Below are positions 3,879 through 43,714 of a stretch of 64,000 nucleotides of DNA, piece by piece; position 1 is the stretch's first letter; each line of letters opens with the position of its first letter. The notes below the pieces were generated by a model that worked only from the letters and a program-made list of their open reading frames with translations, was not told the origin of the DNA and ran no database searches. Source of the stretch: an uncultured Gammaproteobacteria bacterium (lineage in GTDB: Bacteria > Patescibacteriota > Patescibacteriia > UBA9934). The DNA lies in contig CAYPWV010000002.1 in the NCBI GenBank assembly GCA_964414795.1, positions 5,057-69,056 of the forward strand, read 5' to 3'. A program made the translations under genes and the position numbers.

Positions 3879-4040
3879 GATACTATTGAGTTTAGAAAAT
3901 CTTTACCGTGAGCGTATACTCATGTGTTCGTTCTGTATAGTTTGCAACGTGTACGATAGTCATCCAAAAAAAACATAAAACCTATACCATTTCTAATATC
4001 GGTTCCATGTGCCGTGAACCCATAAATTCATTTTGAGGCT

Positions 4041-4112
4041 AAAACAAAACAAAAAAATCTCTCGAGTCTGTTTGCGATCAATTTCATGATCCTGAGCGGA
4101 CTTGAGAGATTT
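4041..4112 (-). terminator. rho-independent terminator-like stem-loop for the minus-strand gene 4303..4953
   Basis: Arms 4056..4069 'aaatctctcgagtc' and 4099..4112 'gacttgagagattt' are inverted, with 1 mismatch. They are flanked by an A-run on the plus strand, i.e. a U-run downstream on the minus transcript. Confidence 0.4.
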
Positions 4113-4302
4113 TGTTTTTATTGGAGTTTATCGATTTCCAAATTTCTTTTTTACAATTTCAATTTTACCTATCGCACTATTCGTTCACATTTTTGTCGAA
4201 TATTAGCGGTGAAATGAATTTATGGGTTCACGGCATGTGGTTCCGAATAGTGAACGGGTTCAGAGCGGTGAATTGGAAAGGGTGGAAGACCGCCTTGCCG
4301 CA

Positions 4303-4953
4303 TCATTTATCAGAAATCAACATTGCAGCGGCAGTATTTTGAAAATCTAAATTTGCAAGATACAAATCCTCCTGAATACCGTTGAGGCCAAAAATATCTC
4401 TGAAACCTTTACAATCAAGACATATACTGATTTCAAAAATGCACAAAGCCGTGGCCTCGGTCATGATTCTATTATTTCTTTGGTCGCCATCATTCAGAAA
4501 CCCAAGCGTTATAGATAAAATATTTGGATGGGCTAGGTTACTCAGCCATTTATAAACTTTTTTAAAAGATTCTTTGTCACCAATCCAAGGTGGCACGCTC
4601 GGTCTTTTATCGGACGTCTTATGATTTCCCCATTTTTGCAAACTCGATTTACCCGAATACGTGGCAAATTGGGTAATCTTGTTTGCTTGATCTGTTGGAT
4701 CTGACAAGAAATAGAAATTCAGTAGCATTTCATGGTTATATCGTTGCAGAAGAGCAAATATTAAAGGATCTTCGAGTGATAATAAAGCGTAAAGATTTGA
4801 TCGAAATCTCCTAAGAAATATTCTGTAAATTTGTTTTACATCTAGGTCATCGGGGATATTGATGGTGGATGATGACCCTTCTTCAATGAGCGTAATATAC
4901 TTATCTAGGTGCGAAATAAAATCTTTTAATATTTTTTGATGATGGATTTCCAT
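4303..4953 (-). CDS. hypothetical protein (216 aa)
   Basis: Long ORF. Contains 'KWLSNLAHPN', loosely reminiscent of HEPN/Abi-type motifs (K instead of R). No confident family. Confidence 0.45.
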   Translation of the reverse strand: MEIHHQKILKDFISHLDKYITLIEEGSSSTINIPDDLDVKQIYRIFLRRFRSNLYALLSLEDPLIFALLQRYNHEMLLNFYFLSDPTDQANKITQFATYSGKSSLQKWGNHKTSDKRPSVPPWIGDKESFKKVYKWLSNLAHPNILSITLGFLNDGDQRNNRIMTEATALCIFEISICLDCKGFRDIFGLNGIQEDLYLANLDFQNTAAAMLISDK

Positions 4954-5016
4954 AGTGGTTAGGACTCATCTTTTTTCTAGCATAAAACAAAACTCGAACC
5001 ATTTTTAGTTTAAGTC

Positions 5017-5250
5017 TTACTTCTTTATCCAAATTTCTTTTTCAATTCCTGATTGAACGATAATACTCTTTAATGTACGAGGCTTGATAGCATGTGTGCC
5101 GTGAAAGGGAACGCACACTTGTCGGAATAAATCGTTTGCATTTCTTACGTAGAAGTAATGACTGCCATGTGTGTGATTGAGAACAAAGTGATGATTTTTA
5201 AGAAAACGTACGACATCTTCAGCAGTCCAATTGAAAATTCCCTTGGTCAT
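5017..5250 (-). CDS. hicA: HicA-like toxin (YcfA/HicA mRNA interferase family)
   Basis: 77 aa. 'GSHYFY...VPFHGTHAIKPRTLKSIIVQSGI' matches the HicA dsRBD-like core (GSH...PxH...IKxGTL..I). Confidence 0.55.
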   Translation of the reverse strand: MTKGIFNWTAEDVVRFLKNHHFVLNHTHGSHYFYVRNANDLFRQVCVPFHGTHAIKPRTLKSIIVQSGIEKEIWIKK

Positions 5251-5253
5251 ACA

Positions 5254-5595
5254 TTACGCAGCAACGAGTGTTTGACGTGCAAGAGCGTTGCAAATATCCA
5301 TCCGACCTGACGCGTATACATTCGTTTGTTTCTTAACGGGTGACGTTTCAAGACTTTCCCACATTTTTTCGTATTCTTTATCAGGTTGTTGATTGAGAAT
5401 ATGAGGACGAGCTTTTATTTTTTGTGCAGATGCCAAATAACCTTGCGTTGCTTCAAAAAGAAGAAGAAGTGCTTCTTCGGGAGTGTCACCAGATTCTACA
5501 ATATTAAACTCCAAACAAACCCCATACCATACATCGTCTTCGCGAAATACAATGTATCGTACGCTTCCCTGATGAAGGGTATTTTTTTGTCGCAT
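5254..5595 (-). CDS. hicB: HicB-like antitoxin (RNase H-like fold; UPF0150)
   Basis: 113 aa immediately upstream, with a 3-nt gap to hicA. 'YIVFREDDVWYGVCLEFNIVESGDTPEEAL' resembles the HicB N-terminal domain. Confidence 0.5.
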   Translation of the reverse strand: MRQKNTLHQGSVRYIVFREDDVWYGVCLEFNIVESGDTPEEALLLLFEATQGYLASAQKIKARPHILNQQPDKEYEKMWESLETSPVKKQTNVYASGRMDICNALARQTLVAA

Positions 5596-5629
5596 ATCAG
5601 TCAGAATACAATGTTCAGATGATTTGGTA

Positions 5630-5932
5630 TTATTTATCCTTAAAATAATACCCGCTTATTACACCGACGAATGGTCCGAGAATTCCTGCGTAAGTAGCGA
5701 GAAAGTTCAACGTATCAATTCTTAATGTTTCAGTTGCGTATAGGTTATAAATTGGTGCACCAATCAAGATTACTCCAATTCCCGTCAAGAAAAACAGAAT
5801 GATGTATTTAGCGATTGTAGCTCTGAATGTAATCCCAAACTTTTCAGGATCGAATGATTCAATCTGGTCATTTGAAACTGAAACATTTCCTCCAAATACA
5901 TCAATCGCTTCCTTTCGTTCGGTATCAAGCAT
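5630..5932 (-). CDS. small membrane protein (100 aa)
   Basis: Two hydrophobic segments. Confidence 0.4.
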   Translation of the reverse strand: MLDTERKEAIDVFGGNVSVSNDQIESFDPEKFGITFRATIAKYIILFFLTGIGVILIGAPIYNLYATETLRIDTLNFLATYAGILGPFVGVISGYYFKDK

Positions 5933-6215
5933 AATGTCCGTGAATCACCCAAACGTCCCCATCTTTTGTCATTGCAAGTTCACGTCCGACATATTCAAAA
6001 ATATCAATCCCACCAAATTCAATCCCGCGACGAAATTTCACGCCTGGTCCAAATTCAATGCCACCAAGTCGTATTCTTGCCTTAGGCTCAAGAGTTCCAT
6101 CAGGGTGTGAATTGAATATTTGGTTGAAGTTAATTCTCAAGTATTCAGGCATATCGATAAAACTATAGTACTCTAAATTTAGGTCGCATTTTTTATGCCT
6201 AGCGTTGCTCCACAA
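5925..6215 (-). CDS. hypothetical protein. The track start appears to be a TTG codon
   Basis: The ORF track gives M at 6215, but the plus-strand triplet is 'caa' (TTG on minus). Confidence 0.3.
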   Translation of the reverse strand: MWSNARHKKCDLNLEYYSFIDMPEYLRINFNQIFNSHPDGTLEPKARIRLGGIEFGPGVKFRRGIEFGGIDIFEYVGRELAMTKDGDVWVIHGHYA

Positions 6216-6395
6216 TTCTCACAGTAAAAGATTTCAATCCAATTCAAATCCATTTGGCTTAAACTTACATCTTTTTGTTTGTAGCCTAAATTAACTCCGT
6301 TGATCACCGCACCGCATTTTCCGCAAATCGGTTCCATATTTCTTAATTAAATCGATCAGCAGCTCACCAATTGCTTGATGCTCTAGTGACCGACC

Positions 6396-7058
6396 GTGTC
6401 TATTTTACGAGACACTGTCGTTCATGGCTCGGCGGGCGGATCTCGAACTCACTTTCCATCAATGATTGAGGGGTCTTTTGAGGGGGTCGAACTGGCACCT
6501 GGGTCTCATCAAGGTGAGACATTTGAGACAGTACAGAGGGGGTCTGTCTCACGCAAAAACAGCGAATCTAAAGGGATTTTAACAAATATGCAAACACGAA
6601 CAGGACACGAACAAAATCGAAGATTTACGGATGAAGAGATCGGGCAATTCGTGAGATTCGGCGAGTTACTCGAGGGCATTCACCGGCGACTTGAGGGATG
6701 GAAAGAACGGCTCAAAACTGAACCTGATGGCTTTCCGATAACCTACGGAATTTACGACTGCAACCTATGTCGCCGATCCATGAGAGATAACGAGGGTTGG
6801 TACGACCGGTATGGTCTCAAGTGTCCGCTATGCCGAAAGGCGGTCGACGAAGGTATCGTCCCGGGATCGGCAGTCCTCGATGATAAGACATGGTTTTCAG
6901 TTACTCAGTTATCGACGAAATACGGATGGCATCACACGACGGTTCAGGCGAAAGCGCGAAGTGGCGAGTTGAAAGCAAGGGTTGTTAGAAATGCTGATGG
7001 CAGACCGTACTTTTATGTATTTCTGAAGGAAGAGAATCCAAGCCTGGATTCTGAGTGA
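6396..7058 (+). CDS. hypothetical protein with a Cys-rich (zinc-finger-like) segment
   Basis: 'CNLCRRS...KCPLCRK' has two CxxC pairs. Its stop abuts the convergent recombinase stop (7056-7061). Confidence 0.45.
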   Translation: MSILRDTVVHGSAGGSRTHFPSMIEGSFEGVELAPGSHQGETFETVQRGSVSRKNSESKGILTNMQTRTGHEQNRRFTDEEIGQFVRFGELLEGIHRRLEGWKERLKTEPDGFPITYGIYDCNLCRRSMRDNEGWYDRYGLKCPLCRKAVDEGIVPGSAVLDDKTWFSVTQLSTKYGWHHTTVQAKARSGELKARVVRNADGRPYFYVFLKEENPSLDSE

Positions 7059-8378
7059 TTACTGGACGACTGATTCCTCTTCCTGTTGCTCGGAAGGCAA
7101 AAGACGAAACTTCTTGTGCGTATAAACGAGGCGGCTCCGCAAATGCCCGAGGAGTTCGCGCTTTTCGGTCTTGGAGCCGTCCATGAGGACGTACTTGGCG
7201 TATGCCCGAATATTCAGCTCGATTTCTTCCGCTTTGAGATCCGTGGGCTTGCCCAGAACGTGATTTAAAAACTTGCCGTATCGGGTGACCTCTTCGTCAA
7301 ATTTATAACGAATGCCAAGCTCGTCTATTTCTGCGGTGTCGATGATACCGACTAGCTCCTTGATCAACTCCTCCTCGCGAATATAGCTATTTTTGCAAAA
7401 TCGATCCCGCCCACGACTGCACCCGTAATAAATGTAATGAGCCATTGTGCCATCACTTAGTTTCTTCACCTTGTCCTCGGCAACAATGCCAGATCCGCAA
7501 AGACCACAGGTAAAAAGACGGACAAAAGAAAACTCCTTCACACTTCGCTTGGTTTGAATACGATGAAGTCGATCCTGAACCTTTTGAAACAACGCCTTCG
7601 TAATGATTGGCTCATGCTTGCCCGTATGCCACTTACCGCTTTTCTTGGGATGCTCAAATCGCCCGTAGTAAAAAGGATTATTCAGCGTTCTTTGAACGCT
7701 ACTGTGGGCGAAAACCTTTCCGTGATGCGAGCGAAACCCGATATCCTTCAGCCACTGGTAAATATTCCTCGTACTCATGCGATTATTAGCCACCTTCTCG
7801 AACATCTGTTTGATGGTAGGTGCTCGACTGGTATCGATGATCACTTCGCACTTTTTATCCGTACGATTTTGGTTGAGGTAGCCAATAGGCGCAGGACCCG
7901 GCCATAATCCAGCCTGGACACGCGAACGGATACCGCGTTTTACGTTTACGCTTCGGTTGTCGTTCTCCAATTTTGCCTGACTGCCAAGAATCATGAGCAG
8001 GAATTTCTCGTTGGGTGAATTCGTAAAACGCTGGTTGAATGTCCGAATATCAATAAGTTTTCCCGCATCCATCAAATCAACAAGCGCACCCAAATCACCA
8101 GCATTGCGGCTTAAGCGATCGGTCGCCCAGGTAAGAATGCCGCCAAACTTGCCGAAACGAACATCATTGATCAGCTCGTTGAAAATCGGTCTGTCTCCCC
8201 GCGACTTTGCGGAACGGCTTTCACGCTTTATCTCCTTGATGCTTAAGCCTTCGCGCTCGGCGAGTTTCTGCATCTCTTTGATTTGGGAATCGATGGAAAG
8301 AGATTGACGCTCCTCCGATTCGCTACTTTTTCGCGCATAGAGACAGTATGCAATTGGCTTTTGCACTTTTTCTTGCAT
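7059..8378 (-). CDS. large serine recombinase (resolvase/invertase catalytic domain + recombinase domain + zinc ribbon)
   Basis: 'YCLYARKSSESEERQSLSIDSQ' catalytic-Ser region. 'GILTWATDRLSRNAGD'. C-terminal 'CGLCGSG...YYGCSRG' Zn ribbon. Start set at the internal ATG (MQEKVQ..., 8376-8378 'cat'). Confidence 0.85.
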   Translation of the reverse strand: MQEKVQKPIAYCLYARKSSESEERQSLSIDSQIKEMQKLAEREGLSIKEIKRESRSAKSRGDRPIFNELINDVRFGKFGGILTWATDRLSRNAGDLGALVDLMDAGKLIDIRTFNQRFTNSPNEKFLLMILGSQAKLENDNRSVNVKRGIRSRVQAGLWPGPAPIGYLNQNRTDKKCEVIIDTSRAPTIKQMFEKVANNRMSTRNIYQWLKDIGFRSHHGKVFAHSSVQRTLNNPFYYGRFEHPKKSGKWHTGKHEPIITKALFQKVQDRLHRIQTKRSVKEFSFVRLFTCGLCGSGIVAEDKVKKLSDGTMAHYIYYGCSRGRDRFCKNSYIREEELIKELVGIIDTAEIDELGIRYKFDEEVTRYGKFLNHVLGKPTDLKAEEIELNIRAYAKYVLMDGSKTEKRELLGHLRSRLVYTHKKFRLLPSEQQEEESVVQ

Positions 8379-8385
8379 ACCGATT

Positions 8386-8712
8386 CTATTTCTTCTTTGG
8401 TTTTGGCGTGGGTAAATTTTTTTCAGTAATGACGACGAGCTTCGAAAGCCACTCACGATTTTCCAGCAAGTCCCCATGTATTTCCATTGATGCCTTTGCT
8501 CCTGGATACGCAAAACCTTCCTTGTAGTCCTCGCCAACAAACTGTTTTCCAGCATCCGTAATCTTAATGAAGAGCGCATCATCGCAGATTAATCCGACAA
8601 CTTTGTGAGATACATACAGGGCGTACTCGCCAAACATTTTCTTGGCTTCGATGGTAGGTAGATCAGCTAACTGATCAAGAATGTAATCCACAGTTGACTG
8701 TTTTGTTGGCAT
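8386..8712 (-). CDS. TfoX N-terminal domain protein
   Basis: 'KKMFGEYALYVSHKVVGLICDDALFIK' matches the TfoX_N consensus (MFGG.glY.dgkmFalv.dd.LylK). Confidence 0.5.
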   Translation of the reverse strand: MPTKQSTVDYILDQLADLPTIEAKKMFGEYALYVSHKVVGLICDDALFIKITDAGKQFVGEDYKEGFAYPGAKASMEIHGDLLENREWLSKLVVITEKNLPTPKPKKK

Positions 8713-8733
8713 ACGGATGAAGAAAAACCAGAA

Positions 8734-9426
8734 CTAACTCACAATATATTCGCGGATGAGTATCTTTGCGTACTCTTCTCCGGAATGAATGATCATTTTT
8801 TTGGCGAATACCAGATGGATAGAATAGATGATTCCAAGAGCAATCGACGTTCGCAAAGCTGACCCATCAGGATAAAGCCATGCAAAAACAATAACGCTTA
8901 CCGCTGATGCGAACAACGAAATAATTGACCCTCCGGCGAGGTTCCTCCAGAAACCATATTCTGCATTGTGCTGACCGATGAGGTGCCCCTTTTTCATTTT
9001 TCCGCAGATGCAGGATACCGCCTCACAAATAGTCTTGCGGGAGTGGACGGAGTCAGATTGTTCGGCTTCAATGCTTGGAATTTGAATATTGAAGTCCGAC
9101 AAGATTTTTCCATGCACCTTTTCTGTGAAATCACTTGTAAAAAAGTCGTTGAGATGCAACAGGAAATTTGTCGTCGGCATGTTCAGTCCATTGTTAAACA
9201 TTCTCTTCTGGTACAGTTCTTTTGATAAATACTTTGCCAGTTGCACGAATAGATACAATAGAACGAGAGGAATCGTAATATCAGAAACGAACTGGAGTCC
9301 GAAGATACTGTCAACAAGATCACCGATCAGTGGTCGCAAAGCGCGAAAATATAGTACAAGGAACGGAATGACACCGAGGATACCTGGGAATATTCGCGCG
9401 ACGAGTGTATATGCATCTGGTTTCAT
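8734..9426 (-). CDS. hypothetical membrane protein
   Basis: Several TM helices. Start placed at MKPDAY; the ORF extends to 9477. Confidence 0.4.
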   Translation of the reverse strand: MKPDAYTLVARIFPGILGVIPFLVLYFRALRPLIGDLVDSIFGLQFVSDITIPLVLLYLFVQLAKYLSKELYQKRMFNNGLNMPTTNFLLHLNDFFTSDFTEKVHGKILSDFNIQIPSIEAEQSDSVHSRKTICEAVSCICGKMKKGHLIGQHNAEYGFWRNLAGGSIISLFASAVSVIVFAWLYPDGSALRTSIALGIIYSIHLVFAKKMIIHSGEEYAKILIREYIVS

Positions 9427-9428
9427 AT

Positions 9429-10490
9429 CTACTCCTCGACGTATTCGTGGAATGGCTCTTCCTGAATTGGGCTCCAATCTGCCCGCGTCGGAGCATCGGC
9501 ACTACTATACCGAATAGCTTTCCCTTTTGTCGTGTAGACTGATGCGCCGATTTTTTTAAGGGCGTTGGTGACTTTCTTTGCAGGATGTTTAGTCGATTCC
9601 TTTGGAGCAGAAACGTAAGCGACCTGCGCTTTAATCCTCTTTAGGAGGCTACTGCTAAGATTTCTCTTGCTTCCGTGATGTGGAACGTCAAGAAAATGCA
9701 GGTCGGTTAATGCGATTCCCGATGTCTCAGCATAATTTGATGCATTATGAAGGGCGGTTTTTCCAGCATCTCCTGTAAACAGCATTTTGTGACCATCTAG
9801 GTTAAAGAGAATCACAGTACTCGTATTGTTCTCAGCGGAAGTCGTATCTTCGTCGTCGTTCAACAGGTCAATATCAAGGCTATCACGGATACTATTTACG
9901 ATATCTTCCGCTGCTTTTCTTATCGCCCCAAGAATACCCAATGCGTCTTTTGGTTGCGGTGTCCCGCGAAAATGCGGCAATAAGGACTGATAGTATTCCA
10001 TCGATGGACCCAGTACGTGAATCATTCCATTCATCCCACTAACGCCTTGAAACGGCTCAACTACCGTGATGTTTTTCCCTTTGGCGAGCGATTCGAGATC
10101 GCTTGCATGTTGGAGAGATTTTTCCAATTTCTCTTCAAGACCAGACGCGGTGATTCTGCCATTAACAAAAAGGCTCTTGATATCTTCGGCGTGTTCCCAG
10201 GGTTTATGCATCACAAGAGTTCCGACTCGCATCTGCTCCAAGACCACGCACAGTCCTGAGGCATGATCTGCATCTGGATGTGTAGAGATTACAAAGTCAA
10301 CAAAGTCTGTTCCTCCGTAATAGAGCTTGATGTGTTCAACCAAGGCGGTGCCAGAGTCCTTAGTCCCACCATCAATCACAATTACGGTCTGCTCTTCACG
10401 CGAACCCGCAAGGTTTCCAAAACGCAATGCGATCGCATCTCCGCCCCTTTCACCTTCTCCCACTGGGAGATAGTCAATTTCGTAAGCCAT
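9429..10490 (-). CDS. MBL-fold metallo-hydrolase (ComEC/Rec2-related beta-lactamase fold)
   Basis: 'ISTHPDADHASGL' (H-x-D-x-DH metal site). 'LDVPHHGS' downstream His motif. Confidence 0.65.
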   Translation of the reverse strand: MAYEIDYLPVGEGERGGDAIALRFGNLAGSREEQTVIVIDGGTKDSGTALVEHIKLYYGGTDFVDFVISTHPDADHASGLCVVLEQMRVGTLVMHKPWEHAEDIKSLFVNGRITASGLEEKLEKSLQHASDLESLAKGKNITVVEPFQGVSGMNGMIHVLGPSMEYYQSLLPHFRGTPQPKDALGILGAIRKAAEDIVNSIRDSLDIDLLNDDEDTTSAENNTSTVILFNLDGHKMLFTGDAGKTALHNASNYAETSGIALTDLHFLDVPHHGSKRNLSSSLLKRIKAQVAYVSAPKESTKHPAKKVTNALKKIGASVYTTKGKAIRYSSADAPTRADWSPIQEEPFHEYVEE

Positions 10491-10497
10491 ATGAACT

Positions 10498-11148
10498 TTA
10501 CTTTTTTAATTTTGGATCTTTCATCACCTCCACAACCACACCACTGATTCGGAACGTGTCTTTTTCGTCCTCGTGAATGTAAATCGGCGAATACGATTTT
10601 TCCTTCGAATCTGAGGCGAGGATGATCTGCTCGTTTTCCTCGTCCTTAACCAGACGTTTGATGTTTGCAACGTCACCGATGACTGATAACACGTACTTAC
10701 CGCTTGGCGGATCAGTTTGTCCGGAATCGACAATTGCAAAGTCGCCATCGTCAATCGTTTTACCGTTAAGCGATGCATCATTCATTGAGTTTCCACTCAC
10801 GCGCACCGCGAATACCTTGCCGCGGGTCTTGGGAAGAAGTGACTTTGATACATGCAGATACCCCTGAAGGGTTTCATCTGCAAAAATGGTCGCTGGACCA
10901 GCGTTTGCGCTACCAAAAATAGGAATGAGCAGAAGCCCGTCCACTGTTTTCCTAGAAACATCAATTTTTTTAACGATCTTTCGGTCAAAGCTCGCCTTCA
11001 AAAGACCTGCCGAAACAAGCTTCTCGAAGTGGTGCTTCACCTGCTGTGGATGAGGCTGACCGATAAGCTCGCCGATCTTCCGCAAACTTAAACTTCCGAG
11101 GTCGTGTTTCTTTGCCAGCTCCAAGATTTTTTGTTGAATTTCATGCAT
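10498..11148 (-). CDS. LexA/phage-CI-like repressor (HTH + peptidase S24)
   Basis: N-terminal HTH ('LSLRKIGELIGQ...'). S24 'GNSMND' Ser motif. Downstream 'IKRL' Lys. Confidence 0.75.
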   Translation of the reverse strand: MHEIQQKILELAKKHDLGSLSLRKIGELIGQPHPQQVKHHFEKLVSAGLLKASFDRKIVKKIDVSRKTVDGLLLIPIFGSANAGPATIFADETLQGYLHVSKSLLPKTRGKVFAVRVSGNSMNDASLNGKTIDDGDFAIVDSGQTDPPSGKYVLSVIGDVANIKRLVKDEENEQIILASDSKEKSYSPIYIHEDEKDTFRISGVVVEVMKDPKLKK

Positions 11149-11261
11149 ATTTCAAAATAATGATACAGGATAGTACATAATAGTCAAGTGGATAATTTGA
11201 CAGACTTGACACTCATAAACGTCCTCGATAAAATACCTTCATAATTCATTAAACTAATGGT

Positions 11262-11480
11262 ATGGATATCGGGCAAGAACAAATTCAAACATCATGCCCG
11301 GGGTGCGAGGCTCCAATCTCCCTCTCCATCAATGACGTGAGGGAGGAAAAATCAGTGGTCTGTCCGGGGTGCGGGAAAGACGTTGCGCTCAAGAAAGACC
11401 AATCGGTCGATAAGGTCATTGACGACGTGAACGCGTCCGTTGAGGACTTGCTCGGAACGATTCGCAGGTTCGGTAAGTAA
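11262..11480 (+). CDS. small zinc-ribbon protein (72 aa)
   Basis: 'CPGCEAP...CPGCGK' has two CxxC pairs. Confidence 0.4.
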   Translation: MDIGQEQIQTSCPGCEAPISLSINDVREEKSVVCPGCGKDVALKKDQSVDKVIDDVNASVEDLLGTIRRFGK

Positions 11481-11723
11481 AGACAGGATACGGTTACGCG
11501 TTCTTTAAAAATCCAATTACTCCTACGTTTGTGGTGGTACACCGTTATTGCTAAGGAGAACACTGAAACGCCACATAAAATAAACAGTTAGACAAACAAA
11601 CGTAGCCAAAGTGCGAGGGAAAGCTCCTACTCTTACCAAAGTTATAGGCATTAGGTCGAGTACATAAAAACTTATCAGTCTTAGTTTTTTTGTATTTAAC
11701 TTAATGCCCATTCGTTCCATATA

Positions 11724-11757
11724 AAAATCCTAACCTGATCGGTTGGGATTTTTTTCA
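11724..11757 (+). terminator. rho-independent terminator-like hairpin
   Basis: 'aaaaatcctaacc-tgatc-ggttgggattttttt': 9-bp stem including one G:U, followed by a T7 run. Confidence 0.4.
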
Positions 11758-11783
11758 TTCCCTTATTATTCACGCTTCGTTAT

Positions 11784-13067
11784 ATGTCAGAAATATCCAA
11801 AGGTTCAATAAAAGTGGAGTACGTCGCTACAGACGCACTCACCACGCCAGGCTTCAATCCGAGAAAACACGATGAGATCGCGGAAGAAAAACTCAAAGAG
11901 AGCATTAGACGATTTGGCATGCTTGACCCCCTGATTGTGAATTCCGCACCAAAGCGGAAGAACATTGTGATAGGAGGAAATTTCCGCCTATCAGTCGCTA
12001 AATCACTCGGCTTTACTCAAGTGCCCGTCGTCTACGTCAACATTCCGAATCTTGAAAAAGAGAAGGAGCTCAACGTCAGGTTAAATAGAAATACTGGCGA
12101 GTGGAATTGGGATCTCCTCAAGGAGTTTAACATGGATATGCTCATCGAAGTAGGGTTCGACGAAACTGACCTCAGCCACATTTGGGATGACACACTCTCC
12201 GTCGAGGAAGACGACTTCGATTCCGCAAAAGTCGCGGCGGCGATCAAAAAGCCAAAGACGAAATCAGGTGAGAAGTTTCAGCTCGGAAATCACGTTCTCC
12301 TCTGTGGCGATTCCACGGATCCGAAAGTGGTCGCGGATGTCATGGGCAAACATAGGATAGACATGCTTTACGCAGATAGTCCCTACAATATTTCGCTGGA
12401 TTACTCAAAAGGCATTTCAACGAATGGCAAGTACGGTGGCAATGTCGATGACAGCAAATCTCCAGCGGAATATCGCGCATTCTTGAAGTCATGTATCGAA
12501 AACGCGAAAGCGGTTGCCAAGCCCGACGCGCACTTCTTCATGTGGTGCGACCAGTCGTACATAGGACTTCTTCAGTCGCTTTACGAAGAGCTGAGCGTGA
12601 AGAACAGACGCGTGTGTTTATGGGTGAAGAACAATTTCAACATGACACCCCAGATCGCGTTCAACAAGGGCTACGAGCCAGTGGTATATGGAACGATTGG
12701 CTCGCCATATCTCTGCGACAAGGTGATGAACCTCACCGAGATTCTCAACCGCGATATCCAGCCCGGTAATCGTACCATCGACGACATCATTGATGTGTTC
12801 GATTTGTGGCTCGCCAAGCGTCTCAACGCTCAGGATTACACCACGCCAACCGAGAAGCCCGTATCACTTCACGAGAAGCCGCTTAGACGCTGTACGAAGC
12901 CCGGAGACATCGTCCTCGATCTCTTTGGAGGATCGGGTAGCACGATGGCTGCCTGCGAGCAGATGAAGCGAAAGTCATTCACCATTGAAAAAGATCCAGT
13001 GTTCTGTGACGTAATCATCCAACGATATGAAAAACTCACCAACCAAAAAGCAAAGCGCATCAATTAA
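11784..13067 (+). CDS. ParB-like nuclease domain fused to a beta-class DNA (N6-adenine/N4-cytosine) methyltransferase
   Basis: N-terminal ParB/Srx-like ('LDPLIVNSAP...GGNFRL'). Methyltransferase motif IV 'DSPYN'. Motifs 'TPTEKP' and 'FGGSGST' (motif I). Order IV then I indicates beta class. Confidence 0.8.
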   Translation: MSEISKGSIKVEYVATDALTTPGFNPRKHDEIAEEKLKESIRRFGMLDPLIVNSAPKRKNIVIGGNFRLSVAKSLGFTQVPVVYVNIPNLEKEKELNVRLNRNTGEWNWDLLKEFNMDMLIEVGFDETDLSHIWDDTLSVEEDDFDSAKVAAAIKKPKTKSGEKFQLGNHVLLCGDSTDPKVVADVMGKHRIDMLYADSPYNISLDYSKGISTNGKYGGNVDDSKSPAEYRAFLKSCIENAKAVAKPDAHFFMWCDQSYIGLLQSLYEELSVKNRRVCLWVKNNFNMTPQIAFNKGYEPVVYGTIGSPYLCDKVMNLTEILNRDIQPGNRTIDDIIDVFDLWLAKRLNAQDYTTPTEKPVSLHEKPLRRCTKPGDIVLDLFGGSGSTMAACEQMKRKSFTIEKDPVFCDVIIQRYEKLTNQKAKRIN

Positions 13068-13833
13068 TCTCGGGGACATTTTTGTCCTGGGGAATCATCG
13101 CCTCGTATACGGGGACTCACGAGATGTGAAACTCGTAGATAAGCTATTCGGAAAGGATCGTGCTAGCCTCATGCTTCTAGATCCGCCTTATGGAGTAGCC
13201 TACGTGGAAAGCAAAAGCGGATTTAAACAGAAGCTCGGGAAAGAAAAGATCATCGCGAACGATCACTCGCAATCCGACGAAGAATATCGGCAATTCACCA
13301 AAGATTGGTTGGAGCCGATAAGGCATCATCTCGCTCCAAAGAATACCTACTACATCTTCAACTCGGACAAGATGATCTTTGCCATGCGCGAAGGCATCCT
13401 CGACGCGGGATTCAAGTTCACTCAACTCCTCATATGGGCGAAGTCACACGCAGTCATTGGTCGCATGGACTACCTCCCTCAGCACGAGTTGATCGCCTAT
13501 GGTTGGTACGGCACGCACAAGTTCATGAAGTCCAAGGACAAGACAATCCTCATTTATCCGAAGCCCTCAAACTCGAAGGCACACCCGACCATGAAACCTA
13601 TCGGATTGTTGCGGCGGCTCATCATGAACAGCTCGAGTATCCATGAAGTCGTCTACGATGGGTTCCTCGGAAGCGGATCAACACTCATAGCTTGCGAAGA
13701 TACACGACGGCGATGTTATGGAGTGGAAATTGAACCAGAATACATTGCAACGATTATCAAACGGTTCGAGGAAAAAACAGGGATCAAAGCAAAGTTGATA
13801 GAAAACGCATATGAAAAAACAAGTACCAAGTAA
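13027..13833 (+). CDS. DNA methyltransferase (beta-class N6A/N4C; DPPY family)
   Basis: 'LLDPPYGV', 'HPTMKP', 'FLGSGST'. Overlaps the upstream methyltransferase by 41 nt. Confidence 0.8.
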   Translation: MKNSPTKKQSASINLGDIFVLGNHRLVYGDSRDVKLVDKLFGKDRASLMLLDPPYGVAYVESKSGFKQKLGKEKIIANDHSQSDEEYRQFTKDWLEPIRHHLAPKNTYYIFNSDKMIFAMREGILDAGFKFTQLLIWAKSHAVIGRMDYLPQHELIAYGWYGTHKFMKSKDKTILIYPKPSNSKAHPTMKPIGLLRRLIMNSSSIHEVVYDGFLGSGSTLIACEDTRRRCYGVEIEPEYIATIIKRFEEKTGIKAKLIENAYEKTSTK

Positions 13834-14260
13834 GGTCATTGAACGCCAGGATGACAAGAAAAGTGAGATGATCGAACAGTTGAAGCGAACGCCGATCGTG
13901 CAAGTTGCGTGCGAAAAGGTCGGGATCGGTCGCGCAACATATTACCGCTGGCTCAAAGACGATGACGACTTTCACGTTCAATCGCAACAGGCAATCATCG
14001 AAGGCAATTCACTCGTGAGCGACATGGCAGAAAGTCACATGATCAGCATGATTCGAAACGGCAACCTCGGCGCTATTACGTTTTGGCTCAAACATCGTCA
14101 CCGTGCTTACGGAACGCGCGTTGATCTGAACGCCAGCGTTCGCGTCGATCGTCCGCTTACACAAGAAGAGGAAGAAGCGATCGGTCGCGCGCTCACCCTC
14201 GGAAACGTCATTTCGAGCGAAATCACTCCCTATGAAAACGGAAACGGAGAATCTGAATGA
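13811..14260 (+). CDS. phage terminase small subunit-like protein (HTH)
   Basis: 'VACEKVGIGRATYYRWLKDDD' HTH. Position immediately upstream of and overlapping the terminase large subunit gene. Confidence 0.5.
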   Translation: MKKQVPSKVIERQDDKKSEMIEQLKRTPIVQVACEKVGIGRATYYRWLKDDDDFHVQSQQAIIEGNSLVSDMAESHMISMIRNGNLGAITFWLKHRHRAYGTRVDLNASVRVDRPLTQEEEEAIGRALTLGNVISSEITPYENGNGESE

Positions 14261-15683
14261 GCTGATGGAGCGGGTGCAGAAAGACAGAAGGTTCCGAACG
14301 GGACTGACTGGAAAGAGTCATTTCTGGTTCTTCCACGTCTACTTCTCGGAATACATTACTTGCGAGACTGCGCCGTTTCAAAAAGAACTCCTCAATCTGA
14401 CCGAGCAAAACTACGCAATGCTCGTTGTTTTGGCGTTTCGTGGCTCAGCAAAGTCCACGATCTGCACGATGTCGCTCGCCCTGTGGTCGATCCTTGGGAT
14501 ACCACAAAAGAAGTTCGTGCTGATTGTCTGCCAAACACAGGCACAAGCGCGTTTCCACTTGCAAAACCTTCGGCGTGAAATGGAGGGTAACGCCTTGTTG
14601 CGGGATGACCTCGGACCATTCGCGGAACACGACGAAGAGTGGAATTCTGGATCGCTCGTGATACCAAAGTTTGGCGCGAGGATTACTGCCGTATCGCTCG
14701 AGCAAAGCGTGCGTGGATTACGTCATGGGGCACATCGTCCTGATCTCATCATCTGTGATGATATCGAGGACTTAGCATCCGTAAAGACACGCGAGTCACG
14801 TCAGAAAACCTATCAATGGTTTACACGTGATCTCATTCCTGTTGGCGACACGAAGACAAATATCGTCGTCGTTGGAAACCTACTCCACGAAGATTCGCTC
14901 ATAAGCCGAATTAAGGAAGAAATTGAGAAAGGAGAACGAACGGGAAAAGTTGTCGAGTATCCGTTGCTTGACGAGGCAGGAAAGCCGTTATGGCCTGGGA
15001 AATATAAAACGAAGGAGGACATCGAGGAACTCAGGAAAAAGATCGTTGATGAAGTTGCGTGGTCGATGGAATATCTGCTCAAGATCGTGTCCGACGTTGA
15101 ACGAGTCGTCCAGTTGGATTGGATACAGAGATATCCCGATGAACTGTTGCATCTGCCACGATACGCGGAACCGCTAACCATGATCATCGGAGTGGATCTC
15201 GCTATTTCGGAGAAGGATACTGCGGATTACACAGCGATTGTTCCCGTGGTCGTGACGGGGAGCGGTGTGGATACGCAAGTGTATGTCATGCCGCACATTA
15301 CGAACAAACGAATGCCATTTGCCGTTCAAGTGGATACGATCGTTTTTCTCTATCGCCAAATGATGGGGAGATATAGCGTCACGGTTGTCGTTGAAGACGT
15401 CGGCTATCAACGTGCGCTCATTCAAACACTTGAGGAGCGGGGCTGTAGGGTAACGGCATTCAAAGTCGGAAACGTCGACAAACGATCTCGTCTCACGATG
15501 GTTTCACCGAGGATTCGTGATGGAAATATTCTCTTTCCGATTACCGGCGTTGATGCACTGATTTCGCAGATCACGGGATTCGGCGTTGAAAAGCATGACG
15601 ATCTGATGGACGCGTTCGTCATGGCGGCAAGCTATTGTTTCGACAAAGTATCAAATAGGTCGAGCGTCAGGTTGAGAAAGTGA
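14232..15683 (+). CDS. phage terminase large subunit (ATPase + RNase H-like nuclease)
   Basis: Walker A 'FRGSAKST'. Walker B 'DLIICDDIED'. C-terminal nuclease region 'IIGVDLAISEKDTADYTAIV'. Confidence 0.8.
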   Translation: MKTETENLNELMERVQKDRRFRTGLTGKSHFWFFHVYFSEYITCETAPFQKELLNLTEQNYAMLVVLAFRGSAKSTICTMSLALWSILGIPQKKFVLIVCQTQAQARFHLQNLRREMEGNALLRDDLGPFAEHDEEWNSGSLVIPKFGARITAVSLEQSVRGLRHGAHRPDLIICDDIEDLASVKTRESRQKTYQWFTRDLIPVGDTKTNIVVVGNLLHEDSLISRIKEEIEKGERTGKVVEYPLLDEAGKPLWPGKYKTKEDIEELRKKIVDEVAWSMEYLLKIVSDVERVVQLDWIQRYPDELLHLPRYAEPLTMIIGVDLAISEKDTADYTAIVPVVVTGSGVDTQVYVMPHITNKRMPFAVQVDTIVFLYRQMMGRYSVTVVVEDVGYQRALIQTLEERGCRVTAFKVGNVDKRSRLTMVSPRIRDGNILFPITGVDALISQITGFGVEKHDDLMDAFVMAASYCFDKVSNRSSVRLRK

Positions 15684-16199
15684 TGGCTGGGGTCGCGTGT
15701 CCTCAAAGTCCCACTGGAGGATCAGAAAGTTTTCAGGAGTCAGTCCGTACTTCAAACATGCTTCGAGCCAAGTGATCTGTGATCCTCTCACAGAATCGCG
15801 CTTTTTGCGTTTCGATTCTACGAACAGGAGTTTATCGTTCCTCCATGCAATTACGTCCCAACAGCCTTTGTACGAGTTGTTATTCAGCTTCGCAATGCCA
15901 GCCAACGTGTCCGTAATCCATCGTTCCTGAATCGGCACGTTTACCTGATCTTTATATGGCGCATCTTTCCACTGCGTGAGATAAATCGGTTCTTTATTTC
16001 CTCGTCCGTACACCTCAACCCATCGCGTTTCATAGTCGTCTCGTTTCATGGTTTCCGCGATAGCCAGCTCGGCGAACATCGGCTTGCCGTCGATATCAAT
16101 CAAACCCTTATTCCCGAACGTGTGGTTGATTGGCGCACCAGACCACCGTCGAAAAAGCATGTCACGTTCTGGAATGGGTACTGAGCCGAGGATAGGCAT
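15651..16199 (-). CDS. PD-(D/E)xK nuclease, VRR-NUC-like
   Basis: 'CWDVIAWRNDKLLFVESKRKKRDSVRGSQITWLEA' follows the D...E-x-K...Q pattern of VRR-NUC. Confidence 0.5.
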   Translation of the reverse strand: MPILGSVPIPERDMLFRRWSGAPINHTFGNKGLIDIDGKPMFAELAIAETMKRDDYETRWVEVYGRGNKEPIYLTQWKDAPYKDQVNVPIQERWITDTLAGIAKLNNNSYKGCWDVIAWRNDKLLFVESKRKKRDSVRGSQITWLEACLKYGLTPENFLILQWDFEDTRPQPSLSQPDARPI

Positions 16200-16221
16200 A
16201 TGATGCGATGCTGTTCATCGA

Positions 16222-16755
16222 TCAATCCTCTGAGGGATACTGCCGTGTTATCTCTGTACCGTCCGTGTAATGGACACGGATCACCTTTGCTTTTGTTACC
16301 TTCGTTGCTCCGCTGAAAGCAGTAAGGTTCCAATACATCGGCTCCGAGTCTCCCGGCGCGATCACGTCCTGTGATCTTACGAGGAGAGAGTTATCATTCG
16401 GGTCACCCCATTCGCCAGCAGGTTCGTCAAAGTTATTGTAAAAGCTCGCCGTAATTTCGATACCGTCCATGGTCTTTTCTGAAGTGTTCTTCACCACCAT
16501 GTGAAGCTCGGGAATGCCGATGGAATTATTTTCAATGCTCGCGGATACGATGAAGGAATCAAGGAGAGCATTCGTCGCCAACTTCTCAGCCTCGATCACT
16601 GCTTTCTGTTCCGCGGTGAGTTCGGGTGCCTTTGGAGTGATGATGGCGAGGAAACCAAGTGACCCGACAAGAAAAATTGATAAGCCAATCACGAACTTCT
16701 TCATCCAACTCATGGGTTGTTTCTTCATCACCGAGGTATTTGTCGTTTGCGACAT
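16222..16755 (-). CDS. membrane-anchored or secreted hypothetical protein (177 aa)
   Basis: N-terminal TM 'FVIGLSIFLVGSLGFLAII'. Confidence 0.45.
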   Translation of the reverse strand: MSQTTNTSVMKKQPMSWMKKFVIGLSIFLVGSLGFLAIITPKAPELTAEQKAVIEAEKLATNALLDSFIVSASIENNSIGIPELHMVVKNTSEKTMDGIEITASFYNNFDEPAGEWGDPNDNSLLVRSQDVIAPGDSEPMYWNLTAFSGATKVTKAKVIRVHYTDGTEITRQYPSED

Positions 16756-17073
16756 ACGCGGGTGGTTAGGGATTAGAACCCCGCGATGTCGCTAAAAACA
16801 AAAGCGACACCCGGTGGTGTCTAGCCCCAATCTCCGTACGGATCGTACGAAAATTGTTTTAACCGGATGCCGCTCACTGCGTGCGATCCGATAAGCAAAA
16901 TTTGCCCCTGTAAGGAGATTGAAGCTAGACCATGAAAGTATAGCTTACAAATCGCCTAAAGTGAAGTCCGAGTTACCAACTGCTCAACCCCTTCCTTACC
17001 CTTGTACTTATTGGGCTTTTCAAGGGTTTTTAGGACTAGACAGTCCCAACCCTTGTGGCATTACTTGTCGTGT

Positions 17074-17535
17074 ATGAAAAACGAACTCGAACTGAAAATA
17101 GACCTCGACGTGATCGATTTACCCGTCATGGCAGAGGGAGAATATGACGAAATCGCAAAGGTACTCGACGTGCCAACCGAAGCAGTTGTGACGGCTGCAC
17201 TATTTCGTTGCAACGGCGGATTCCTCGCATTTATTACGTCAGCGAATCGTCGTCTAAACTATGCGGCAATATTCGGCAAAACAAAGTTACAGTGGTGCAC
17301 GGTGCCGAATAGCGAGGAGATGTGCGAACTCGGCTCGATTGATCGAACAAATCCATTTTTCCTCGCTTCAAATCAGCGTGTACAGATGATTATCGACGCA
17401 AAACTTCTTGATCAGAAAAACATCGTTGTTCTCCTTGGGGATCACCGAGCGATAAAAACGACCCTGAATCACTTCATGGTCGGAACGATGCCGAAAGTGC
17501 AAGGAGGAATTTCACTTCCGAAAAAGTTCGAGTAA
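17074..17535 (+). CDS. YbaK/ProX-like aminoacyl-tRNA deacylase domain protein (tentative)
   Basis: Pattern 'CNGG...AFITSAN', 'GSIDRTNPFFL', 'MIIDAKLL', 'VVLLGDHRAIKTTL' parallels the YbaK blocks (GGISPLG, TIIDA, VSGGKRG). Start at the internal ATG 17074. Confidence 0.45.
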   Translation: MKNELELKIDLDVIDLPVMAEGEYDEIAKVLDVPTEAVVTAALFRCNGGFLAFITSANRRLNYAAIFGKTKLQWCTVPNSEEMCELGSIDRTNPFFLASNQRVQMIIDAKLLDQKNIVVLLGDHRAIKTTLNHFMVGTMPKVQGGISLPKKFE

Positions 17536-17544
17536 GCATTGACG

Positions 17545-18372
17545 CTATGATCCTATTAACTCCAACAAAGCCGACCGATTGATCTCCCAGTCGCTTTTGT
17601 CGTGACTGGATATCTCGACGGTAATTGCCGGTTTTCCCGTTGTGTTCGTGAACCATTGCGTGGCAGTGCCTGAATAGTTCCAATCATTATAAATCGTATA
17701 GCCGGTCTTGTTGGCATACCAGTCTCCGAGGGCTACGGACTCGGCGTTCGCCTCGGGGGAAATCACGCCGCCTTGCGAGTGGAAGGCGAGCATCATATCT
17801 GGCGCGCATTCCTGAACTACCTCGCGCAACGCACGTGCTTCGGCTTCTGAAAACGGTTCCGTTCCGGCAAAGGTTTCTTCGTCTGGATACGTTGTCCAAC
17901 CTTGCGTTTCAAAGTTACGGTTCAGATTTACACCGTTTGCGTTCGTACGATACAAATCTTCCATGTATCCATCGGGATTAAGGAGTGGAATAATCACAAC
18001 CTTCTTCTCAAAAGAAAGAATACTCGGCTGGGCAGCTATTTCATCGGCAAATGTTCGCAACATGTCCACCGCGCCTTTTTCATTGCCATGAATCCCAGCA
18101 AAGAAGAGAAGACAACTGCCCCCGCTTCCAAATTGATAGGCATCGATGGCACGTCCATTCTCCGAATAGCGGATGATTCGTTTTGTGGCAATCTCCTCCG
18201 CGAGCGCAGGTTCCGTGACGACCGTCTCGATCTGTTTGGTGGTGAGTGTTTGTTGTGGCTGAGGGGTATCGGTCGCTGGAATAGCACGAAACAAAACCAA
18301 GACAAGTATTGGAATCGGCACGATAAGAACTAGAAGCAAACGATGTCGGTTCATACCTCGTGGTGAGCGCAT
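17545..18372 (-). CDS. M14-family zinc carboxypeptidase-like protein
   Basis: 'HGNEKG' (HxxE zinc site), 'NPDG', 'NRNF' motifs. N-terminal TM. Confidence 0.7.
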   Translation of the reverse strand: MRSPRGMNRHRLLLVLIVPIPILVLVLFRAIPATDTPQPQQTLTTKQIETVVTEPALAEEIATKRIIRYSENGRAIDAYQFGSGGSCLLFFAGIHGNEKGAVDMLRTFADEIAAQPSILSFEKKVVIIPLLNPDGYMEDLYRTNANGVNLNRNFETQGWTTYPDEETFAGTEPFSEAEARALREVVQECAPDMMLAFHSQGGVISPEANAESVALGDWYANKTGYTIYNDWNYSGTATQWFTNTTGKPAITVEISSHDKSDWEINRSALLELIGS

Positions 18373-29749: not shown

Positions 29750-29754
29750 AGGCG

Positions 29755-38583: not shown

Positions 38584-38707
38584 AGGAAAAATATTCCCTC
38601 GAATTTTATCAGAAAATGACCACAGGAGCAACATAATTGTTCATGCCCAGGAAAGTAGAATAATCTGACCTAATACTAGCAAATATTGGCGTTTTTTAAT
38701 CAATTAG

Positions 38708-41205: not shown

Positions 41206-41206
41206 A

Positions 41207-42775: not shown

Positions 42776-42801
42776 AATTTATGTAATTTCCATCAGAAAA
42801 A

Positions 42802-43639: not shown

Positions 43640-43714
43640 TGGCTCCGGGGGAGGGGATCGAACCCTCGACCTGAGGATTAACAGTCCTTCGCTCTGCCGC
43701 TGAGCTACCCCGGA
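43640..43714 (-). tRNA. tRNA-Asn (anticodon GTT)
   Basis: Minus-strand sequence folds as a cloverleaf. Acceptor TCCGGGG/CCCCGGA (7 bp). D-arm GCTC..GAGC. Anticodon loop CTGTTAA. T-arm GAGGG-TTCGATC-CCCTC. Discriminator G and encoded CCA. Confidence 0.8.

Follow-up and report, generated by a model that had tools for sequence, protein, structure and literature searches.

A family of compact integrative elements with methyltransferase, terminase and serine recombinase genes, mainly from Patescibacteria and apparently undescribed so far

Phage-inducible chromosomal islands (PICI), with the Staphylococcus aureus pathogenicity islands (SaPI) among them, are integrated islands that carry an integrase, a repressor and the small terminase subunit (TerS) without structural genes, and that redirect packaging toward their own DNA (PMC10085698). 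PICI have a primase-replicase and an origin and lack the large terminase subunit (TerL), using that of their helper phage. TerL is a distinguishing core gene of the capsid-forming PICI (cfPICI) (PMC10085698), integrative islands of Proteobacteria or Firmicutes that encode TerS and TerL together with capsid, portal, protease, head-tail adaptor/connector, primase-replicase and an AlpA-type regulator, a helper phage supplying the rest of the virion. The phage-inducible chromosomal minimalist islands (PICMI) are satellites of about 6 kb packaged as concatemers into full-size capsids (PMC10803314). Their core comprises alpA, int, iolg and primase genes without terS or terL, and they are found next to fis in Vibrionaceae. 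The PICI-like elements (PLE) of Vibrio cholerae are about 18 kb long, have their own replication initiator and rely on the packaging machinery of their helper ICP1; they are not known to encode TerL. According to one report (PMC6002521), PLE use a large serine recombinase (LSR) for integration and excision, as may be expected of the LSR in the element described here. This element occupies the region between positions 6396 and 16755 of a 64,000-nucleotide stretch of contig CAYPWV010000002.1, the whole of which was analysed and is called the window hereafter (all coordinates refer to it), and it encodes a recombinase, a repressor, two DNA methyltransferases (MTases), TerS and TerL.

The region is very probably an intact member of a conserved mobile-element family, not a decayed prophage. 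The family is large, its members are compact and integrative and occur mainly in Patescibacteria (candidate phyla radiation, CPR), and it is apparently undescribed so far; no description of the module was found in the literature, the coverage of subscription journals being incomplete and an earlier description therefore possible. The element lacks the defining features of an intact prophage, a PICI, a cfPICI or a PICMI. Like PICI and SaPI it combines an integrase, a repressor and TerS in an integrated island devoid of structural genes, but TerL occurs throughout the family, a search for replication genes detected none, and the recombinase class differs from that of most PICI. It shares with cfPICI the possession of both terminase subunits, whereas none of the other cfPICI genes listed above is present and the LSR, the core methyltransferases and the CPR hosts are its own. 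The 6.3-kb core unit is close to the minimal size of PICMI and, like them, has no capsid-remodelling genes; however, AlpA or primase domains were not found in the window element with Pfam and NCBIfam, and the visible targets are a tRNA gene and not fis. By analogy, the element would work most like a capsid-stripped cfPICI, or like a PICI with an acquired TerL, differing from both in its serine recombinase, its obligatory methylases and the phylum of its hosts.

The genes that carry this assignment are the following:

11784-13067, plus strand: ParB_N::N6/N4 DNA methyltransferase, first core gene (N6_N4_Mtase E=3e-29, ParB_N E=3e-8)
13027-13833, plus strand: second N6/N4 DNA methyltransferase, overlapping both neighbours (N6_N4_Mtase E=6e-28)
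13811-14260, plus strand: TerS-like helix-turn-helix (HTH) protein of 149 aa, core gene (five PHROG TerS families; PF13022 above cutoff)
14232-15683, plus strand: TerL of 483 aa, core gene (phrog_38 E=1.9e-76; NCBIfam TIGR01630 above curated cutoff)
7059-8378, minus strand: large serine recombinase LSR1 of 439 aa (Resolvase, Recombinase and Zn_ribbon_recom, all above Pfam cutoffs)

Overlaps of 41, 23 and 29 nt join the four plus-strand core genes into an operon. All genes named in the initial annotation (recombinase, repressor, Zn-ribbon open reading frame (ORF), ParB-MTase, MTase, TerS, TerL and nuclease) were confirmed in place by the ORF listing and profile searches; for LSR1 the 507-aa ORF is too long at its start and the 439-aa call is the real one. 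The ParB-MTase matches the generic PADLOC model MTase_II PDLC03229, and the second MTase is an optional core gene, found in many loci but not in all. The TerS-like protein matches the five PHROG TerS families with E=1e-7 to 1e-4 (best E=3.6e-7). Its model is all-helical and its fold matches, weakly (E=0.17-7), phBC6A51 2ao9 and the small terminases of Sf6 and NV1, while a sequence-profile search of the PDB with this protein returned nothing significant; some of its 1061 homologs are named phBC6A51-family HTH proteins. Its position, directly upstream of TerL with an end that overlaps the TerL start by 29 nt, fits a small terminase. The terminase assignment had initially been tied to matches with Terminase_6/Terminase_2 profiles, and these are not obtained at Pfam thresholds (Terminase_6C is sub-threshold only); this failure is outweighed by the PHROG and NCBIfam matches and by the TerL residues RGSAKST (Walker A), ICDDxED (Walker B) and the C-terminal nuclease Asp residues, invariant in 26 sequences. 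At E<=1e-20, 3898 homologs of TerL were found, those closest to it sharing 50-55% identity, and the named ones come from Patescibacteria, on contigs up to 785 kb. In PADLOC no model matches TerS, TerL or the small ORFs of the element, the only matches being to the generic MTase_II models and, for a metallo-beta-lactamase-fold (MBL) hydrolase described below, to PDC-M48B.

The architecture recurs across genomes. ORFs were called with translation table 11 and clustered, hidden Markov models were built for the recurrent families, and 10 kb on each side of each TerL was inspected for 143 non-redundant module-type and 22 phage-type TerL copies. An MTase lies just upstream on the same strand in 115 of 116 module-type copies, against 2 of 13 phage-type copies, whereas a portal gene follows within 6 kb in 1 of 98 and 12 of 16, respectively. 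The LSR shows the reverse of the portal: it is found within 5 kb downstream in 54 of 98 module-type copies, always on the same strand, and in 0 of 16 phage-type copies, or anywhere in the locus in 109 of 143 and 1 of 22. An S24 repressor is encoded upstream in 23 of 85 module-type copies (20 of them on the opposite strand) and in none of 11 phage-type copies. An ORF of about 144 aa abuts TerL in at least 115 of 139 module copies, and the median gap between the TerL stop and the LSR start is 215 bp. The typical unit therefore reads, on one strand and within about 5.5-6.3 kb, ParB-MTase (~425 aa), optional second MTase (~257 aa), TerS (~134 aa), TerL (~482 aa) and LSR (~450 aa). Five independent long-contig contexts with precomputed Pfam annotation show the same order of ParB-MTase, with or without the second MTase, an ORF of ~150 aa and TerL, without structural genes, and in four of them a serine recombinase gene follows at a distance of 1-2 kb. 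Among 149 random unclassified ORFs drawn from the full 10-kb flanks of 39 loci, no recurrent portal, capsid, tail or lysis PHROG was found; the commonest matches were Sie-like proteins, reverse transcriptases and peptidases. In the window, the absence of portal, capsid and tail genes reported for the region around TerL in the initial annotation holds for the entire 64 kb by Pfam and PHROG searches, and lysis genes were likewise not found.

Scanning species-representative genomes gave at least 455 confirmed stretches. Module copies are mostly in Patescibacteria chromosomes, many on contigs of 0.1-1.6 Mb. Census counts were taken from the best 80 loci per scan, and the labels of these comprise 52 CPR lineages, 7 plain "bacterium" entries and 21 others, mostly automated third-party assemblies. 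The loci with labels outside the CPR (Gammaproteobacteria, Bdellovibrionales, Flavobacteriaceae, Methanoregula etc.) include L013, L017, L020, L028, L043, L054, L074, L087 and L089; either these are mislabelled CPR bins or the family reaches past the CPR. A sub-variant was observed in L093, L094, L096, L098, L100 and L046, in which tandem TerL paralogs (~525 and ~520 aa) replace the single TerL, with MTases before and LSR after them and a TerS-like ORF tagged in two of the six.

The origin of the module was approached through its TerL. Against cultured phages the best identity is about 26%, to Mu-like Pseudomonas phages, so that the search for the closest phage lineage suggested in the initial annotation yielded no close cultured relative; it did yield uncultured relatives that bear a portal. 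Long IMG/VR contigs encode TerLs of 30-38% identity with a portal gene behind them (phrog_2662, E down to 1e-112) and, in L152, a major capsid protein gene as well. The viral contigs L136, L172 and L199 resemble the module more closely in having an MTase upstream of TerL and, in L136, a small TerS-like ORF between them; they differ in that a portal follows TerL (with a MuF-like protein in L136) and then further ORFs, with no adjacent serine recombinase, and that none of the three has an LSR. Their TerL scores of 515-583 lie at the low edge of the module range (median 724). Neighbour-joining of 162 TerLs placed the 136 module sequences in a single clade without portal-linked members; L136/L172/L199 are its sister group, and the phage TerLs at greater distance branch off below. 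If different prophages had each decayed on their own, one TerL clade apart from the portal-linked TerLs would not have resulted. From the sequences, the pattern suggests that the packaging end of a tailed-phage late operon was captured, or left by reduction, just once and that the module then radiated.

Close relatives show that the element is intact. The window is identical to two short metagenome contigs, and a Patescibacteria metagenome-assembled genome (MAG) from Hainich groundwater (L003/L011) is 87% identical over 6423-17535, collinearity starting at 6423. All 13 element genes are open in both the window and L003, and all 13 are under purifying selection, with ratios of non-synonymous to synonymous substitution rates (dN/dS) of 0.014-0.157. 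Individual values are 0.014 for TerS, 0.021 for LSR1, 0.03 for a 177-aa ORF, 0.05 for a 230-aa protein, 0.07 for a TfoX_N-domain protein, 0.085 for TerL, 0.13 for the Zn-ribbon ORF and 0.14 for the ORF at 6396-7058, compared with 0.033 for the flanking host tRNA_edit gene. In the more distant L012 (TerL 73% identical), the element lies beside the same tRNA_edit gene and is without the block formed by the TfoX_N, 230-aa and MBL genes, which is thus cargo. The comparison with sister genomes, one of the checks initially proposed, hence spoke against a remnant and in favour of a recurrent architecture without capsid genes.

Several observations indicate that the module moves as a unit. Loci L087 and L089 are 91.9% identical over 6.26 kb; this common segment opens some 115 bp before the MTase, includes the LSR and an ORF of 185 aa, and closes within the 3' end of a tRNA-Ser gene, while the flanks are essentially dissimilar. 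L039 and L087 form a mosaic, TerS and LSR being 85-88% identical and TerL less than 80%, while a 1.1-kb indel in the interval from TerL to the LSR distinguishes L084 from L088. A tRNA gene is found within 3 kb after the LSR in 14 of the 81 copies with a downstream LSR, in all 14 on the opposite strand, and in 9 it is tRNA-Ser. Several genomes or contigs contain two copies. One locus, L056 from a Falkowbacteria MAG (JAFGMD010000010.1), is a 17,334-bp contig with a 44-bp terminal repeat, on which a 412-aa ORF for a secreted RHS/Ntox44 toxin runs in frame across the contig junction; since this ORF reads through the junction, L056 is probably a 17.29-kb circle. It contains the four core genes and two LSRs, with no recognisable structural or replication gene, and was the sole circular case in a terminal-repeat screen of 170 loci.

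Upstream of the core operon in the window lies a control region with the following parts:

10498-11148, minus strand: LexA-like repressor, winged-helix N-terminus and S24 autopeptidase (Peptidase_S24 E=2e-18; phrog_4 transcriptional repressor)
11149-11261, between the divergent genes: promoter (switch) region with strong back-to-back sigma-70-like sites
11262-11480, plus strand: Zn-ribbon ORF of 72 aa, first gene of the rightward transcript (sub-threshold zinc-ribbon Pfam matches)
11481-11783, plus strand: non-coding leader of ~300 nt, with a long hairpin, then a terminator-like hairpin and T-run just before the MTase ATG

The repressor gene is divergent from the packaging operon, and its product aligns with LexA TIGR00498 over its full length (residues 5-210), below the curated cutoff. 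The plus-strand sigma-70-like site is TTGACA-17-TAAAAT (11206-11234, 11 of 12 matches) and that of the minus strand TTGACT-16-TATCAT (11187-11160, 10 of 12 matches). The stretch 11120-11270 (151 bp, gene ends included) is 93% identical to L003 with the promoter hexamers kept, and an inverted-repeat search of the switch region gave one trivial pair only. The leader is common to the window, L003 and the distant L008 (nhmmer E=5e-19), with a 31-nt block identical in all three; the consensus fold has -49 kcal/mol and the terminator stem is kept. Rfam gave zero matches to the leader in a search over 6000-17600, and as nhmmer found it in L003 and L008 only, it cannot be regarded as a family-wide feature. 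Possible roles of the leader are those of a target for antitermination, of a pac site or of a site to which a protein binds. As read from the sequence, the layout suggests that the packaging operon is under repressor control with a terminator checkpoint.

The leading reading, to which we assign a probability of about 0.5, is that of a helper-dependent satellite that supplies its own terminase and methylases. Such an element would remain integrated and silent, here through the LexA-like repressor at the divergent promoter and the terminator-containing leader, until helper infection, induction or DNA damage led the recombinase to excise it. Its TerS and TerL would then recognise and cut the element DNA and pump it into procapsids of the helper, while the methyltransferases would mark this DNA, either shielding it from restriction in the next host or licensing pac cleavage, and the variable slots would hold defence cargo. 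One review takes the terminase genes of a mobile element to suggest that phages mobilise it (PMC11389934), and the TerL of cfPICI and the concatemer packaging of PICMI are further precedents. The mobile unit, the one circle and the sister phages are indirect signs that would be in line with helper-dependent excision and encapsidation. Several points weigh against this reading. No helper phage has been linked to any host, and the nearest portal-bearing TerLs are about 43% identical to that of the window (measured for L136). No replication gene (primase, replicase or helicase domain) was recognised in the window element or in L056, and headful packaging normally needs concatemers. A search for att sites, in which the window element and eight tRNA-adjacent elements were scanned at their distal ends for a displaced fragment of the tRNA gene, gave nothing convincing; such failure is expected for serine recombinases and leaves the exact element ends undefined. 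The long vertical stay at one chromosomal site in three related species (those of the window, L003 and L012) fits a host-beneficial resident equally well. The census itself has bounds, in that structural genes may lie elsewhere in these genomes, beyond the inspected 10 kb, the ORF calling was crude and confined to table 11 although code 25 occurs in some CPR lineages, the labels of 21 of the 80 genome loci are non-CPR (as deposited, unverified), and the TerL tree is without bootstrap support. As a side observation, IMG/VR sample 3300035698 holds the module contig L091 together with contigs with L136-related portals (L136, L174, L175, L180-L182, L184, L191, L203 and L236), and is a possible place to seek a pair of satellite and helper.

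The initial annotation had considered either a truncated prophage remnant or an unusual satellite retaining both terminase subunits. The first of these, a temperate phage that integrated and then lost everything downstream of TerL, would account for the resemblance of the recombinase, repressor, MTase, TerS and TerL to a temperate-phage left arm plus the start of a late operon, and phage relatives in which MTase, TerS and TerL are followed by a portal do exist. However, there are zero pseudogenes and the selection on the 13 genes is as given above, the cut falls at the same point in 97 of 98 copies, the module TerLs are monophyletic and not interleaved with those of phages, the start of the recombinase gene is often no more than ~200 bp away from the TerL stop, and the unit moves in its entirety. 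The copies are also found in numerous chromosomal contexts, on contigs of 0.1-1.6 Mb, which speaks against their being assembly fragments of full prophages. Decay thus appears extremely unlikely, and it is the satellite half of the initial alternative, compatible with all findings, that may stand. A plasmid-like episome, native as a small circle such as L056, would use the ParB-domain protein and the terminase for partition or multimer processing, the chromosomal copies being integrated forms. The 17.29-kb circle with the module and two recombinases and the ParB_N domain of the first core gene agree with this proposal, but L056 is the single circular example among about 250 loci, nearly all copies are chromosomal, no replication initiator was found, and we know of no plasmid-maintenance role of terminases, all of which make an episome very unlikely.

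Two further explanations keep an active role for the terminase. The module might serve defence or interference, TerS and TerL cutting incoming phage DNA and the methylases marking self as in restriction-modification (R-M), or competition for procapsids aborting phage packaging, with a recombinase that merely moves the island. Defence genes are indeed very frequent next to it (type I and type III-like R-M, TIR and helicases; GmrSD, MmeI-like and PLD-SNF2 in the window), Sie-like proteins and reverse transcriptases occur among the flanking ORFs, the methylases are always coupled to a nuclease-bearing TerL, and stable inheritance at one site in three species under strong purifying selection would be in keeping with such a service. 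Nevertheless, satellites are also found in defence islands with defence cargo, so the neighbourhood cannot tell the two readings apart; no PADLOC model matches TerS or TerL; both the ATPase and nuclease motifs of the packaging motor are kept, where a plain nuclease role would not need the full motor; and the recombinase is part of the conserved unit. A defence function is consequently considered rather unlikely. Alternatively, pac cleavage within the integrated element could package the adjacent chromosome in situ, as in lateral transduction or in the manner of a gene transfer agent, into capsids provided by a helper or from elsewhere in the genome. The lack of a replication module in the window element and L056 would suit this mechanism, as would a TerL of the type of Mu-like phages, in which headful packaging is of the pac type. 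The module also points toward the recombinase, the tRNA and then host genes, and defence islands adjoin it; one paper reports that phages and PICI move defence systems by lateral transduction (PMC12829572). Against it stand the absence of an identified pac site and of structural genes within 10 kb, and the discrete 6.3-kb mobile unit with unrelated flanks and the circular L056, which the mechanism alone does not explain; in situ packaging is thus judged unlikely. A sporulation-type intervening element interrupting a host gene was also considered and dropped since the host is a CPR bacterium, no dedicated split-gene search having been made.

A conserved and selected cassette of methylase, terminase and recombinase genes in hundreds of species-level genomes would represent an abundant class of mobile elements that is seemingly undescribed. 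If these elements are satellites, they would follow a new strategy in which the packaging motor is brought and nothing else, and they would imply a large hidden population of helper phages infecting CPR bacteria. A bolder proposal, that this terminase-only hitcher family is a principal vehicle of horizontal gene transfer in Patescibacteria, with methylation-licensed cleavage in the leader and headful packaging from the chromosome into helper capsids exporting the element and the adjacent defence and metal-resistance islands, is regarded as unlikely. The element also bears on how defence islands are mobilised in genomes without conjugative machinery and on the role of the methylases that precede phage terminase genes. 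TerL is used as a viral hallmark gene, and hallmark-based virus prediction probably mislabels the cassette as virus or prophage. In IMG/VR (loci L091-L144), about 60 contigs catalogued as viral have a module-type TerL and no portal nearby, several of these contigs being clearly pieces of CPR chromosomes. The modules can therefore give rise to spurious prophage calls and to spurious links between viruses and CPR hosts.

The window copy is a variant of the typical unit: its recombinase is on the left and inverted, and it has extra cargo consisting of the TfoX_N-domain protein, the 230-aa protein, the MBL hydrolase, a VRR-NUC-like nuclease and the 177-aa ORF. LSR1, which lies upstream of the module on the opposite strand, past the repressor and cargo, matches all 76 TerL-adjacent LSRs (top 63%, median 52% identity). 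The genes outside the core and control region are:

6396-7058, plus strand: accessory ORF of 220 aa (zero Pfam, PHROG, PADLOC and NCBIfam matches)
8386-8712, minus strand: TfoX_N-domain protein of 108 aa (PF04993 on an identical gene call)
8734-9426, minus strand: hydrophobic protein of 230 aa (no family match in Pfam, PHROG, PADLOC or NCBIfam)
9429-10490, minus strand: MBL-fold hydrolase (Lactamase_B E=8e-11)
15651-16199, minus strand: VRR-NUC-like PD-(D/E)xK nuclease of 182 aa (predicted fold; no direct Pfam match)
16222-16755, minus strand: accessory ORF of 177 aa with a hydrophobic N-terminal segment (no family match in Pfam, PHROG, PADLOC or NCBIfam)

The ORF at 6396-7058 is probably 198 aa long, with its start at 6462; inspection by eye shows a CxxC...CxxC motif and a C-terminus resembling an HTH, and its homologs are found in the left part of seven other module loci, where the LSR is not always adjacent. 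The initial gene list was right in the genes it named but omitted the TfoX_N-domain protein, the 230-aa protein and the MBL hydrolase, although these lie within its range. The MBL hydrolase matches PADLOC PDC-M48B over its full length (E=1e-87) as well as LmuA and Avs1a-type MBLs, and in NCBIfam it gives matches to the ComEC C-terminus and Avs1a, which makes it a candidate anti-phage defence gene carried as cargo. The 230-aa protein, in whose translation hydrophobic segments are visible on inspection, is probably membrane-bound and a possible partner of the MBL hydrolase.

The strand flip to a VRR-NUC-like gene after TerL, noted in the initial annotation, was a reasonable call. The AlphaFold2 model of the 182-aa protein (pLDDT 93.5) has as its best Foldseek match the VRR-NUC nuclease of FAN1 (probability 1.0, E=2.5e-3), followed by Hjc resolvases, and in the protein family D114 and K129 are invariant and E127 nearly so. 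A sequence-profile search of the PDB with this protein gave nothing significant, and PF08774 is annotated on a few of its homologs. As the family is found in Bacteroidota too, it is a generic accessory gene outside the core. The 3' ends of TerL and this convergent gene overlap by 33 nt (15651-15683). The slot after TerL is variable, the 182-aa nuclease being lineage-specific there and the 177-aa ORF, present at the same position in four loci, accessory.

Beyond the element, the minus-strand run after 16.2 kb was considered as a missing head and tail module and rejected, since its genes encode an M14 peptidase, cation efflux, PAP2, DsbA and the like. The segment 17536-28294 (~10.8 kb) comprises genes for the M14 peptidase, two cation-efflux proteins, PAP2, DsbA-like thioredoxins, a SurA-like protein, DsbD-HMA and a P-type ATPase. 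It has the look of an island block serving metal and redox homeostasis, and is missing from the 87%-identical L003, through either insertion in the window or deletion in L003. A defence cluster follows at 28283-38634 with Cas4/DUF2779, GmrSD (type IV restriction), an MmeI/Eco57I-like R-M enzyme and a PLD-SNF2 helicase. L003 offers no match to 29755-33210, where GmrSD and the N-terminal portion of the MmeI-like gene are encoded, and this suggests that modules have been swapped within the defence cluster. Two further features lie on the right side:

38791-40122, plus strand (that of TerL): second large serine recombinase LSR2 (Resolvase, Recombinase and Zn_ribbon_recom, above cutoffs)
43640-43714, minus strand: tRNA-Asn(gtt) (ARAGORN)

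LSR2 matches all 76 TerL-adjacent LSRs (median 50% identity) and belongs to the same family as LSR1, and its arrangement with a tRNA-Asn gene on the opposite strand is the pattern of 14 of 14 other tRNA-adjacent loci. Three low-GC ORFs with zero Pfam matches lie after LSR2 (40072-43386), and housekeeping genes are found beyond the tRNA (M17 aminopeptidase, MetRS, AlaRS, ribosomal proteins S13, S11 and S4, and RpoA). The element may thus be part of a larger composite island of about 37 kb, reaching to ~43.7 kb, with metal-homeostasis and defence cargo, in which LSR2 may be the right-end recombinase and tRNA-Asn is a possible right-hand integration target, the membership of all of these being uncertain. 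On the left, a low-GC block at 4000-6400 (0.37-0.38, against 0.45-0.50 nearby) encodes a HicA toxin, its likely HicB partner, small ORFs and a weak DUF5677-like protein (4303-4953); it may have been inserted separately or may belong to the island as its left part. A DUF5677 gene is found upstream of the module in L009 too. A DDE_Tnp_1 transposase gene of an insertion sequence element occupies 55790-56995, between AlaRS and the ribosomal-protein operon.

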